Shown here piece by piece: positions 1-2,713 of a stretch of DNA of 20,682 nucleotides. Below the pieces are notes generated by a model. That model worked only from the letters and a program-made list of their open reading frames with translations, had not been told where the DNA came from and searched no databases. A program made the position numbers and the translations under genes. The number at the start of each line of letters is the position of its first letter. The first letter of the stretch is position 1. Location of the stretch: UHGV virus genome UHGV-0140731; one strand, given 5' to 3'. The stretch is from a virus.

Positions 1-194
1 CCTCGCCCATCATCCCAGCCACGGATAAACTCACCGCGTAAATCAGGTAATTTTAACGTTGGGTAAACCTTTGCCAGATTTGGGTACTTTTCAGAAGAAA
101 ATGCTGCACCATTGCATTTCAGCCACCCCGTTGGAGGTGTGGCTGAGGGCCATGGAACAGGTACACCAACGGGCAGTGCCGAGCCTTCCCCCAA
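1..194 (-). CDS. Partial tail-fiber tip cassette (tail-collar box, 5' portion only; continues past window start)
   Basis: Bases 1-225 are near-identical by eye to 1031-1255 and similar to 517-741. The minus-strand frame from TTG 192-194 reads GEGSALPVGVPVPWP... as in the other cassettes. No ATG or Shine-Dalgarno; the ORF runs off the window. Confidence 0.45.
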   Translation of the reverse strand, partial: MGEGSALPVGVPVPWPSATPPTGWLKCNGAAFSSEKYPNLAKVYPTLKLPDLRGEFIRGWDDGR

Positions 195-204
195 ACCAAC
201 GTTT

Positions 205-711
205 TCATGCTGCCCTTACGATGTAATTAAACGCAATGTTGCGTGGGCGGTTTTCGTTTGCAGTTGGAACAATTTTTGAAGCATCAAGGCCAATCACTTT
301 TGGGTAAACAGCGCCGTCTGTCCTTTCTGTCACCATACTTCTGACTAAGGAAAAATAACTATTGTTCGTTGAGGGGTTCAAAGGCACTACTGCCCCCTTA
401 AACGAGCCTACTGATTCCCATATTGAATAATTTTCAGTATTTACAGTCTTGAACTCACCATAGATATTACGTATGGCATCACCTTGAGCGGATAATATTG
501 TTCTCCCCGCATCCACACCACGTCCGTCATCCCAGCCGCGAATAAACTCACCGCGTAAATCCGGTAATTTATTGGTGGGATAAGCCTTTGCCAGTTCTGG
601 GTATTCTTCAGCAGAAAAAGCTGCTCCGTTGCATTTTAGCCAGCCTGTTGGCGGAGTGGCTGAGGGCCACGGAACGGGCACACCAACAGGCAGTGCAGAG
701 CCTTCCCCCAA
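205..711 (-). CDS. Tail-fiber C-terminal tip cassette with phage tail-collar domain (168 codons); probably a silent cassette
   Basis: N-terminal ~70 aa (PVPWP..PTGWLKCNGAAFS..LPDLRGEFIRGWDD) fit the tail-collar signature (GWL.C.G ... LPDLRG). Central ~70 aa are divergent; C-terminus RPRNIAFNYIVRAA is conserved. Called start is TTG 709-711 with no Shine-Dalgarno; the frame is open upstream only to TAA 733-735. Confidence 0.6.
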   Translation of the reverse strand: MGEGSALPVGVPVPWPSATPPTGWLKCNGAAFSAEEYPELAKAYPTNKLPDLRGEFIRGWDDGRGVDAGRTILSAQGDAIRNIYGEFKTVNTENYSIWESVGSFKGAVVPLNPSTNNSYFSLVRSMVTERTDGAVYPKVIGLDASKIVPTANENRPRNIAFNYIVRAA

Positions 712-721
712 ACCAACGTTT

Positions 722-1195
722 TTATGTGGCCCTTACAATGTAATTAAAAGCAACGTTGCGGGGGCGCATTGATATCCATGCCCCGGTAAAATTATCCTCT
801 GCCGTCCTTTGAGTGCCTGTTATGGAGTTATCTGATGATGCTGGAACATAATCGCTATTATTTCCTGCTTTAGGATTAGCAGGGTTTCCAACAGTTATAA
901 CAGAATCAGCAGTAGCATAAGCGATACCTACTTTGACATTAGTATTCAGATCGTAACCGTAATAATCCTGCAAAGCTGTACGAATAAATGTTGCAGTCTG
1001 ACCACTTAGCAATGAACGCCCTGTATCAATCCCTCTCGAATCATCCCAACCACGGATAAACTCACCGCGTAAATCAGGTAATTTTAACGTTGGGTAAACC
1101 TTTGCCAGATTTGGGTACTTTTCAGAAGAAAATGCTGCACCATTGCATTTCAGCCACCCCGTTGGCGGTGTTTCTAAGGGCCACGGAACGGGCAC
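722..1195 (-). CDS. Tail-fiber C-terminal tip cassette with phage tail-collar domain (157 codons); probably a silent cassette
   Basis: Same conserved N-terminal collar box and C-terminal RPRNVAFNYIVRAT with a different central core. Start is GTG 1193-1195 with no Shine-Dalgarno; the frame stays open upstream to 1246 and encodes the junction residues GLGEGSALPVGV found in the full-length fiber. Confidence 0.6.
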   Translation of the reverse strand: MPVPWPLETPPTGWLKCNGAAFSSEKYPNLAKVYPTLKLPDLRGEFIRGWDDSRGIDTGRSLLSGQTATFIRTALQDYYGYDLNTNVKVGIAYATADSVITVGNPANPKAGNNSDYVPASSDNSITGTQRTAEDNFTGAWISMRPRNVAFNYIVRAT

Positions 1196-1235
1196 GCCAA
1201 CGGGCAGCGCCGAGCCTTCCCCTAAACCAACGTTT

Positions 1236-2713
1236 TCATGCCGCCCTTACGATATAATTAAACGCAATGTTACGAGGACGAATGGTTACATAATTAACCC
1301 CATCACCTCGTGAAGGCCCTGCAAATGAAAAACGGGAAAATCCTGGTTGGTTAGAAACAATTTGGTCATAGTTATTGATTGAATGACCAGACCCAATGTC
1401 GAAATTACCTCCGTAATGAGAAAAACTTGTACCATCCTGCCCTGAAAGCAGGGTACGTCCCGCATCAATCCCGCGCCCATCATCCCAGCCACGGATAAAT
1501 TCACCGCGTAAATCCGGTAATTTATTGGTGGGGTAGGCTTTTGCCAGTTTGGGATACATTTCAGAAGAAAATGCTGCACCATTGCATTTTAGCCAGCCCG
1601 TTGGTGGTGTTTCTAAGGGCCACGGAACAGGCACGCCAACGGGCAGCGCCGAGCCTTCCCCTAAACCAAGGTAATCAAGAACGCTCTGAATACTGGTCTT
1701 ACCAAGAATGGCGCGTCCAACACTTGTCAATGCAGTTAACGCGGCACGATCAACACCTGTGAAATAAGGGAGTTTATCTGCTGCTGTAGCTAGTGCCGCT
1801 AGAGCAGTGAGCGTAGCGTCTGCCGCTTGCTTTCCATTAGCCAAATCATATGCAGCCTTGACAGCTTTCGGTGTGGCGGCCAGCACTTCGGACGTGCTAT
1901 TGGTAGCACTGCTGAGTTGGACTATCCCTTTTTGAGCCGTGGTTGCATCCTGGGCTGTATACTTCCCGTTAGCCAGGTCATATGCAGCCTTGACAGCTTT
2001 CGGTGTGGCAGCCAGCACTTCAGACGTGCTGTTAGTGGCACTACTGAGCTGAACTAATCCCTTTTGCGTTGTGCTTGCATCCTGCGCCGTATACTTGCTT
2101 TTCGCCAGATCGTAGGCTTTTTTAACTGCCAGCGAACTCGCAGCAACATCACTTCTGGTACTGGTTACAGAGTCTGAAATATCAATACCGATCGTGCGGT
2201 TGATACGCTCGGATGTATCAATCATCTCTTGAGTAATGGTAGATACGCCAGCAGGGATATTCACCGTACAAACCAGCAGTTCCCCATCACCTAACTGATA
2301 TGAATCGGTATAGGTTCTGGCAACAAATTCAGCTGCATGAATATGTGACGCGGTATTCACCTGATAGGTATCTTCTCCAAGAAGGTATCTTCCCTTCAGC
2401 ACAATTGCATATTTCTTGCCTGCGTTAAGTGCAAGAGATATATCCTTACGATGCTGAATAGTTACCTGGTAGAATTCACCAATATCCACTGACGCCGCGC
2501 CAGCGGTTTTATCTCCATCCACTGAGGTGATTAACAGGTTCATCCCACCGCCAGGCTTAGGCAAGAAACCAGCATAAAATCCCGGGTCAACAATTCCCCT
2601 GAATTTTCGGTTTAGAGCGGCTGACAGATATGGTTCGTGGTATTGCACATCAGCCACCAGAGCCAACGACTCGGGTGATGGGTAAGTAACCGATGTAACA
2701 ACTGTAACGTCAT
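1236..2713 (-). CDS. Tail fiber protein (P2 gpH / P1-Mu S-type repeat region plus C-terminal tail-collar domain)
   Basis: Start placed at ATG 2711-2713 (MNDVTVV..., AAGGA about 12 nt upstream) rather than the longer track start at 2804. Contains 44-aa tandem repeats (KAVKAAYDLANGKYTAQDATTAQKGIVQLSSATNSTSEVLAATP), then LTALAALATAADKLPYFTG, then the collar box and ...RPRNIAFNYIVRAA. Confidence 0.8.
1806..2150. repeat. ~132-bp in-frame tandem repeat (about 2.5 copies) inside the tail fiber gene
   Basis: ttagccaaatcatatgcagccttgacagc at 1837 recurs as ttagccaggtcatatgcagccttgacagc at 1969 and, diverged, at 2101. This also creates the spurious repetitive plus-strand ORF 1827-2057. Confidence 0.75.

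Follow-up and report, generated by a model that had tools for sequence, protein, structure and literature searches.

A multiple-inversion switch was first described in plasmid p15B of E. coli 15T-, which has six sites and fibers of 739-762 aa. Its Min region, the subject of Sandmeier et al. (1990, 1991), is said to form 240 isomers. The DNA analysed here (the window, all 20,682 nt of UHGV virus genome UHGV-0140731) is an entire short-read metagenome contig (ena:ERZ652502, NODE_139; ~7.8x coverage), the end of which lies inside the fourth of a row of fiber-tip cassettes. It very probably includes the fiber-side arm of a Min-type multiple-inversion region, the many-sited counterpart of the P1 C segment, and its silent-cassette system is an ordinary example of the long-known Min/Cin switch of P1-like phage-plasmids. 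With p15B Min it shares the P1-like phage-plasmid backbone and a constant 5' part of the fiber to which, at a crossover site, one out of several 3' ends without promoter is joined. In its relatives, the likeness extends to sites in both orientations and to a serine invertase of the Din family where the array ends. It differs in that the complete loci among the relatives have 8, 9 and 17 sites rather than six, that the shaft in the window is shorter (493 aa vs 739-762 aa), and that only the same-orientation arm is visible in the window. The corresponding region of the relative MF510496 (L002) matches p15B min with 92% coverage and 99% identity (PMC5786510), and from this figure, together with the 95.4% identity of the window to MF510496 over 1040-4100, the window would be homologous to p15B min.

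The Cin/cix C-segment of P1 and P7 (also Gin/G of Mu and Pin/P of e14) has in common with this locus the LPs-R-S operon, the position of the site at Y-L-G-L and its TT core, and the invertase of the relatives is 74% identical to Cin (L001, the single copy compared). The C-segment of P1, however, has only a pair of sites and a single invertible segment, and each of its two tips is accompanied by a separate U-type assembly gene. In the present system sites are numerous, and the majority of tips are collar cassettes of ~145-170 aa that lack a partner gene. Prophage Phi2 of E. coli EC958 likewise has nearly identical 26-bp sites flanking collar-domain 3' fragments, but it is a chromosomal prophage with two sites and a single invertible segment of 2,067 bp. 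These sites, ..AATTACCTT/GGTTTAGGAGAA and ..ATAAACGTT/GGTTTGGGGGAA, invert in culture as seen in PacBio reads (PMC4134206). The R64 shufflon (Rci/sfx) also combines several sites, inversion only, and alternative C-termini placed onto a constant N-terminal part (the PilV adhesin). Rci is a tyrosine recombinase acting on a conjugative pilus adhesin rather than a phage fiber, whereas the array-adjacent recombinase in the relatives is a serine invertase of the Resolvase family and the sites are cix-type. Membership of the R64 shufflon family was rejected for the window because recombinase class and target differ.

The fiber operon and its crossover sites

No promoter other than LPs is recognisable for the operon of R and the fiber gene (Table 1), and the P1-identical stretch of LPs spans the annotated -22 and -10 boxes of P1 in the alignment. 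A scan of positions 1-3400 gave five promoter-like sites against 5.0 expected, with no excess within the array, and two terminator-like sites against 3.3 expected, so that the scan as a whole was uninformative. The whole fiber gene (1236-2717, minus strand) encodes 493 aa and carries a collar tip at its end; the start at 2713 proposed in the first-pass annotation is out of frame, the true ATG being at 2717. The constant part (Sc) is 95-98% identical to the 5' part of S in P1, P7 and SJ46. Phage_fiber_2 repeats lie within it, among them a tandem repeat of 132 nt at 1802-2065. The 493-aa protein is encoded identically in three related loci (L007, L008 and L010), and no record among the collections of plasmids, phages and E. 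coli genomes covered at least 80% of positions 1-2800 in one place. IS elements are found at 18159-19472 of the contig.

Table 1. Features of the fiber operon and tip-cassette array in the window.
Feature	Coordinates	Strand	Evidence or sequence
Late promoter LPs upstream of R	3194-3212	minus	Column 21 to alignment end 100% identical to P1
Gene R, tail-fiber structural/assembly protein, 144 aa	2729-3163	minus	ORF; PF26881 Phage_P1_tail_fiber_R; P1 R-S synteny
Constant part of tail-fiber gene S (Sc), ATG 2717 to crossover core	1669-2717	minus	PF03406, E = 2e-49
Crossover site 1, fiber constant/variable junction (cixR equivalent)	1656-1681	minus	TTCTTGATTACC/TT/GGTTTAGGGGAA; ..D-Y-L-G-L-G-E
Tip E', currently expressed variable 3' end: collar, ~70-aa core, RPRNIAFNYIVRAA, stop	1236-1668	minus	ORF, Pfam
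Crossover site 2	1217-1242	minus	GGCATGAAAACG/TT/GGTTTAGGGGAA
Silent cassette D', collar tip without in-frame ATG	722-1229	minus	ORF, Pfam
Crossover site 3	703-728	minus	CACATAAAAACG/TT/GGTTTGGGGGAA
Silent cassette N, collar tip	205-715	minus	ORF, Pfam
Crossover site 4	186-211	minus	AGCATGAAAACG/TT/GGTTTGGGGGAA
Silent cassette M, conserved collar box only, cut by contig end	1-198	minus	Pfam

In P1, cixR reads CCAATACC/TT/GGTTTAAGAGAA, with the annotated crossover between its two T's, and the fiber junction of the window aligns with it base by base at the Y-L-G-L codons, with the same TT core. The inner half-site GGTTTRGGGGAA fits the invertase crossover consensus at 12 of 12 positions (read by eye against Table 3 of PMC4134206), and every cassette head stands in one phase (..T/T GGT TTR GGG GAA). 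At least four such 26-bp sites are present in the window, all in the same orientation. By its bases, the junction box belongs with the 26-bp crossover sites on which serine invertases of the Cin/Gin/Hin/Min family act, and it is the positional homologue of P1 cixR. The first-pass annotation had set the mechanism apart from Cin/Gin inversion, a distinction not supported by a junction of the Cin/Min type at the position of cixR.

Tip cassettes without starts

A direct repeat of 249 nt occurs four times (1-249, 518-766, 1032-1280 and 1471-1719; identity 77-92%), and the core of the box, TTGGTTTRGGGGAAGGCTC, has four minus-strand copies (199, 716, 1230 and 1669) against 0.00 expected in shuffles. 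Read from the box, all four tips start with GLGEGSALPVGVPVPWP and share a collar domain of ~65 aa, followed by divergent cores; Pfam Collar (PF07484) matches four of four, with E-values of 2e-14 to 9e-16, and the collar box matches the solved structures of the T4 gp37 fiber tip and of a short tail fiber. The three complete tips end in RPRN[IV]AFNYIVRA[AT] and a stop codon. The earlier description of a fiber ending in a collar tip and followed, in the same orientation and from the same junction box, by three more start-less collar cassettes is thereby confirmed, as are the shared 5' box, the differing core and the conserved 3' end (by repeat, Pfam and alignment; the 3' end in the three complete tips). 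The limits given there for the modules, 1195-722, 711-205 and 194-1, have to be moved to the crossover cores, 1229-722, 715-205 and 198-1. The cassettes differ by whole-core replacement and not by A-specific substitutions. Mutagenesis of the DGR type was rejected on the whole-core replacements, and inspection of the translated ORFs of at least 80 aa in the window gave no obvious reverse-transcriptase-like ORF.

An in-frame ATG is absent from all three silent cassettes, and the starts chosen by the ORF caller are internal TTG or GTG codons inside the box. The nearest Shine-Dalgarno-like motif, AAGGG, lies ~17 nt upstream, and the ATG within its reach is out of frame. The earlier statement that the downstream modules have no ATG of their own thus holds for in-frame starts. 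PGAP and other pipelines do call these modules as separate CDSs ('phage tail protein') with GTG or TTG starts, as would be expected if each were an independent gene translated alone. The called starts, however, sit inside conserved junction codons, no in-frame ATG is available, AAGGG serves the out-of-frame ATG and other records carry the same cores as in-frame continuations of the shaft, so that the chance of independent genes is negligible; such short CDS calls have been flagged explicitly as annotation artefacts (PMC4134206). The core of cassette N, for instance, shares 98.9% identity with the 3' end of a full-length expressed fiber gene in plasmid NZ_CP080083 (L011, 8001-9728). The modules are silent cassettes without promoter or start codon, alternative tips that become joined in frame to the constant shaft at the shared junction, as had been proposed. 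The evidence supports the view that they encode alternative receptor-binding tips, which may set host range.

The array can be followed only as far as the contig. Because the contig stops within the fourth cassette, at the fourth box, the remainder of the switch is unseen and the window has neither an invertase gene nor a site in the opposite orientation, and modules suspected beyond position 1 are unreadable here because the break falls inside the repeat box. Such boxes are break points of short-read contigs. A metagenome contig of 7.8x coverage that ends in a repeat might be thought a repeat-induced chimera in its tandem order, but the same architecture is found in complete plasmid records, D and E lie side by side next to the fiber in L007 too, and they are likewise neighbours in L002; the probability that the order is an assembly product is minimal.

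Inversion isomers among related loci

Ten related loci were compared, and the far end of the array is reached in seven of them (L001, L002, L003, L007, L008, L011 and L012; L003 being NZ_MG288678, L007 GCA_052417615 and L011 from plasmid NZ_CP080083). All seven have a 190-aa Resolvase+HTH_7 recombinase at the far end, adjoined by plus-oriented cassettes. Its catalytic serine would be the one in an N-terminal IGY[IV]RVST motif that aligns with Cin. The presence of a Cin-like serine invertase beside inverted cassettes in seven of seven speaks against the earlier separation from Cin/Gin inversion. Over the 5' 130 nt, the relatives' invertase genes have a mean column identity of 91% with P1 cin (three sequences, two of them identical). 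These 130 nt cover the stretch annotated in P1 as the enhancer, which in this family is Fis-dependent. In all ten loci the sites are arranged as '+...+ -...-', with both orientations in each, the order that inversion alone would demand. Among the relatives' fibers examined, lengths of 575 and 765 aa occur.

The same eight segments, base-for-base identical when cut between the two T's, are present in L002, L003 and L007 in three orders and orientations, and the flanks of these records differ at 0-4 positions in 7 kb. Computation leads from L002 to L003 by four inversions between oppositely oriented sites, and L004 and L005, both of 96,320 bp, differ by the flip of a 5,276-bp segment. L002, L003 and L007 are natural inversion isomers, and L004 and L005 make up a further such pair. 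Exchange took place at the TT core in the isomers and not at points scattered through the box. A switch by pilS-like gene conversion was rejected, as the isomers conserve all segments. A breadth-first (BFS) count in the isomer model gives 240 arrangements for six sites, equal to the number given for p15B Min, and 80,640 for nine. Tips of the window are also exchanged between elements. E', expressed here, is silent in relatives, being a same-orientation cassette in L002 and inverted in L001, L003, L004 and L005; D' has a k-mer similarity of 0.81 to the segment D found in L002, L003 and L007; and N, silent here, is expressed in NZ_CP080083.

From the sites in the window and from these relatives, a switch of the following kind is predicted for the element. 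One late-promoter operon (LPs-R-S) would transcribe a constant shaft ending at the 26-bp crossover site. Each cassette opens with the inner half-site GGTTTRGGGGAA, in the same phase, and closes with a stop codon and then a weak outer half-site (..AAAACG). A serine invertase of the Cin/Min family, putatively coded at the far array end beyond the contig, would recombine oppositely oriented site pairs at the central TT and thereby flip the intervening DNA, so that repeated inversions could bring any cassette head to the shaft and each virion population would display a single tip out of n alternatives for receptor binding. Outer half-sites stand at both outer flanks, and a single internal segment is headed at either end, so that every cassette between that segment and the fiber would have to share the orientation of the fiber; in this model, the same-orientation run behind the fiber must arise as the topology required of a multi-site inversion system. 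That the invertase and the inverted arm lie on the contig's own replicon is inferred, and inversion in this element is an activity extrapolated from the relatives.

A frozen relic, in which the invertase or the inverted arm has been lost and the same-orientation cassettes are inert behind a fixed tip, would account for a window without an invertase. P1-like plasmids with truncated or rearranged cin and C segment have been described (PMC6906374), and the IS elements of the contig (18159-19472) could be counted on the same side. The frames are nevertheless intact in all three complete cassettes, with perfect inner half-sites. Two of the three contigs with the identical fiber protein extend far enough (L007 and L008), both with invertase and inverted cassettes, and a contig end inside a repeat box is the expected short-read assembly break rather than a deletion junction. 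Decay of the switch is, on this evidence, highly improbable.

Possible exchange within the boxes and the size of the repertoire

The first-pass annotation had taken deletional unequal crossing-over for the switch. According to that idea, RecA-type crossing-over or site-specific deletion between direct boxes would fuse the shaft to another cassette with loss of the intervening ones. The direct repeats of 249 nt with 77-92% identity are long enough for homologous recombination, and Gin can reportedly (Plasterk et al. 1983) delete between directly repeated sites at low frequency. Cassette number does vary among the relatives, from 8 to 17 sites in complete loci, and L008 is without segment D, six of its other segments being those of L002 (k-mer 1.00) and the seventh (H) similar at 0.95. 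Six of the seven differences between E' and its L002 counterpart lie within the first 40 nt from the site, and 10 of 14 between D' and its counterpart within the first 91 nt; the differences cluster next to the site and the box is therefore mosaic. The isomeric records, on the other hand, have lost none of the eight segments and are set apart by inversions alone, their exchange points lie at the TT core rather than scattered over the box, and every relative that reaches the far end has a dedicated invertase and inverted cassettes. Deletion would moreover be irreversible and would exhaust the repertoire, and the invertasome aligns sites for inversion (PMC3798978), which counts against it as well. 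Tip switching by deletion is thus very unlikely. Rare events of deletion or of homologous exchange inside the box may happen, and nothing points to them as the switching mechanism.

For the reading of similar contigs, silent tips that follow one another in one orientation are the mark of a multi-site invertase switch with its other half outside the contig, and are no evidence for a new deletion-based mechanism. Annotation pipelines mislabel such cassettes as independent 'phage tail proteins', and long-read assemblies can duplicate them.

It is possible, though somewhat doubtful, that the box is also acted on by homologous exchange, gene conversion or unequal crossing-over, through which cassettes would be duplicated, deleted and re-assorted, and that the Min repertoire of present-day P1-like phage-plasmids has in this way grown from six sites, as in p15B, to 8-17, with tens of thousands of isomers or more. 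If so, the idea of deletion would apply to the evolutionary engine of repertoire size and not to the switch. P1-like phage-plasmids of this kind spread mcr-1 and other resistance genes, and the ~8-17 putative receptor-binding tips that each element could display would be relevant to host-range prediction if the tips affect host range.

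Silent fiber tips and crossover sites

The repeated tip feature of the window is real and beyond chance: a direct repeat of 249 nt is present in four copies with 77-92% identity, and its core, TTGGTTTRGGGGAAGGCTC, occurs four times where none is expected in shuffled sequence (Table). From the conserved 5' box onward, the fiber tip and all three modules behind it have a common start, GLGEGSALPVGVPVPWP, and a common Pfam Collar domain of ~65 aa (E = 2e-14 to 9e-16), past which the cores are wholly divergent, and RPRN[IV]AFNYIVRA[AT] followed by a stop closes all three complete modules. 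There is no in-frame ATG in the downstream modules of the window, and the ORF caller places their starts at TTG or GTG within the box. Repeat, Collar and ORF analyses thus confirm the silent modules with shared box, divergent cores and conserved ends proposed in the first-pass annotation, while its fiber start at 2713 is corrected to an ATG at 2717. A diversity-generating retroelement is an unlikely source of the variation, as the tips differ by replacement of whole cores and not by adenine-specific substitutions. Among solved structures the conserved Collar box has matches in the T4 gp37 tip (2xgf) and in a short tail fiber (9cuy), compatible with a putative receptor-binding role.

The fiber junction, TTCTTGATTACC-TT-GGTTTAGGGGAA, codes for D-Y-L-G-L-G. 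In P1 the annotated cixR, ..CCAATACC-TT-GGTTTAAGAGAA, lies at these Y-L-G-L codons in gene S too, and its crossover is placed between the two T's. The cassette sites in the window (..AT[AG]AAAACG-TT-GGTTTRGGGGAA) agree with the 26-bp consensus quoted for the Mu, P1, e14, p15B and S. boydii invertases (PMC4134206). They are also nearly identical to the sites of prophage Phi2 in E. coli EC958, which flank 'Phage Tail Collar' 3' fragments and, according to PacBio reads, invert in culture (PMC4134206). These alignments identify the box as an invertase crossover site.

Inversion isomers among related loci

Ten related loci, from complete plasmids and assemblies, were compared, three of which encode the 493-aa fiber protein of the window identically. 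In all seven loci reaching the far end, the array is terminated by a 190-aa recombinase (Resolvase+HTH_7; 74% identical to P1 Cin in pPC6-mcr1), and the cassettes adjoining it run in the opposite orientation. Because the box aligns with P1 cixR and a Cin-like recombinase ends these arrays, the earlier view of a mechanism distinct from Cin/Gin inversion cannot be upheld. The site orientations read '+...+ -...-' in 10/10 loci, an order that follows from the segment end types: cassettes are headed by an inner half-site and close with an outer one, outer half-sites lie on both outer flanks, and one internal segment is two-headed. Inversion keeps this grammar, and therefore the fiber-side cassettes up to the two-headed segment share the orientation of the fiber. 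The 'tandem array' of the window is the fiber-side arm of such a region, the other arm being seen in the relatives.

The arrangements in the relatives are direct evidence of inversion. MF510496 and NZ_MG288678 (97,393 bp each) and GCA_052417615 contain the same eight segments, base-for-base identical when cut between the two T's, with 0-4 differences in 7 kb of flanks, arranged as +A+B+C+D+E+F+G+H, -H-E-D-C-F+B+G-A and -G+B+H-A+C+F+D+E, respectively. A breadth-first search, with inversions between oppositely oriented sites as the only moves, converts the first into the second in four inversions and reaches 80,640 states with nine sites and 240 with six; 240 isomers were reportedly given in the publication on Min of p15B. 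Between NZ_CP035313 and CP047090 (96,320 bp each) a 5,276-bp segment is flipped. Deletion between same-orientation boxes, earlier proposed as the switch, is unneeded and is contradicted by the isomers retaining all eight segments.

In three relatives an ISApl1/mcr-1 colistin-resistance insertion lies within the two-headed invertible segment, and it is flipped between the equal-sized NZ_CP035313 and CP047090; its orientation therefore changes with the fiber switch.

On sequence grounds the system appears to be a Min-type multiple inversion region as in plasmid p15B, reportedly described by Sandmeier, Iida, Arber and colleagues in 1990-92, with the window as its fiber-side arm. The region of MF510496 matches p15B min with 92% coverage and 99% identity (PMC5786510), and another P1-like plasmid has a Min-like invertase (98.5% protein identity) and a p15B-like fiber gene (PMC6906374). 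A silent-tip switch of this kind is already known. Of the earlier view, the swappable silent tips stand, and the new, non-invertase deletion mechanism falls to the cix-type sites, the relatives' invertase and the inversion isomers. The R64 shufflon works alike, but the window system is outside that family, since the enzyme of the relatives' array is a serine and not a tyrosine recombinase.

Tip exchange and array evolution

Sequence matches indicate that cassettes reach the shaft. The tip that the window expresses (E') occurs as a silent cassette in the same orientation in MF510496, and as an inverted cassette in pPC6-mcr1, NZ_MG288678, NZ_CP035313 and CP047090. The core of the window's silent cassette N matches, at 98.9% identity, the 3' end of the NZ_CP080083 fiber gene, which is full-length. 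In pPC6-mcr1, a truncated cassette gains an in-frame ATG (MKRKNVGLGEG..) from a 5-nt insertion ahead of one crossover site. The fiber tip fused to the shaft in this record does not have the RPRN..IVRAA end typical of the tips, an apparent frameshift.

The suggested comparison of cassette number and order among P1-like relatives revealed 8 to 17 crossover sites in complete relatives and the same segments in different orders. The related locus L008 is without segment D, its remaining segments matching those of MF510496 exactly or almost so (k-mer 0.95-1.00), and NZ_CP135665 has 17 sites and duplicate cassettes, several recurring two or three times under one protein accession. These duplicates reflect either a true expansion of the array or an artefact of assembling long reads from a mixture of inversion isomers, against which PMC4134206 warns. 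Between window and MF510496 cassettes, 6/7 differences in E' and 10/14 in D' fall within 40 and 91 nt of the crossover core, respectively, and beyond the first 40-90 nt both are near-identical to their counterparts. With its differences clustered beside the site, the conserved box is mosaic among cassettes, a pattern suggestive of local conversion or of homologous exchange. Given this mosaicism, the range of site numbers, the locus without D and the NZ_CP135665 duplicates, some invertase-independent exchange has probably occurred over evolutionary time.

The phage-plasmid backbone

The window, a P1-like phage-plasmid, corresponds in full to one metagenome contig assembled from short reads (ena:ERZ652502 NODE_139_length_20682_cov_7.78). 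It breaks off in the fourth module, within the conserved box, and the DNA beyond on the left is unassembled. Neither an invertase gene nor the inverted arm lies within this contig. Short-read assemblies of such elements break at inversion sites, and the invertase therefore lands on a separate contig. The genes include R, gp16, BplA, KilA/Ant proteins, a Sit-like protein and a RepL-like ORF, so called by position; R, S and the genes upstream of them share 95-98% identity with P1, P7 and SJ46. Fiber lengths of 493, 575 and 765 aa across relatives (NZ_CP080083 and NZ_CP135665 included) suggest that the shaft repeat number differs between them. A ~25-aa motif, PGMR..VQGTLEERARG.G.A, is common to the C-terminus of a 172-aa ORF and residues 921-957 of the Sit-like protein, with a weaker second copy near residue 1000 of the latter. 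Two antirepressor-type paralogues have the ANT/KilAC C-terminal half in common (52% identity). The transposase-like ORF that lies downstream of the RepL-like ORF probably represents an IS inserted into the backbone.

Table. Coordinates of features in the window and in related loci.
Feature	Position	Strand	Remark
Window
Silent cassette M	1-198	-	
Silent cassette N	205-715	-	
Silent cassette D'	722-1229	-	
Expressed tip E'	1236-1668	-	
249-nt repeat	1-1719		four copies
Repeat core, first base	1669, 1230, 716, 199	-	
D' difference cluster	1139-1229		
E' difference cluster	1629-1668		
Shaft 132-nt tandem repeat	1802-2065		79% identity, Phage_fiber_2
Late promoter LPs	3194-3212		base-for-base as in P1
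Sit-like protein	5864-9238	-	1124 aa, lytic transglycosylase domain
172-aa ORF	13117-13635	-	signal-peptide-like N-terminus
Antirepressor-type paralogue	14252-15289	+	no KilA-N domain
Antirepressor-type paralogue	15930-16730	+	KilA-N domain
Transposase-like ORF	18159-19472	+	437 aa, helix-turn-helix domains, weak rve_3 match
Relatives
ISApl1/mcr-1, L004 (NZ_CP035313/CP047090 pair)	3256-6455		
ISApl1/mcr-1, L005 (same pair)	3687-6886		
ISApl1/mcr-1, L008	9068-13721		
pPC6-mcr1 truncated cassette and fused fiber	5701-6033, 6526-8010		
NZ_CP135665 array	1555-10516
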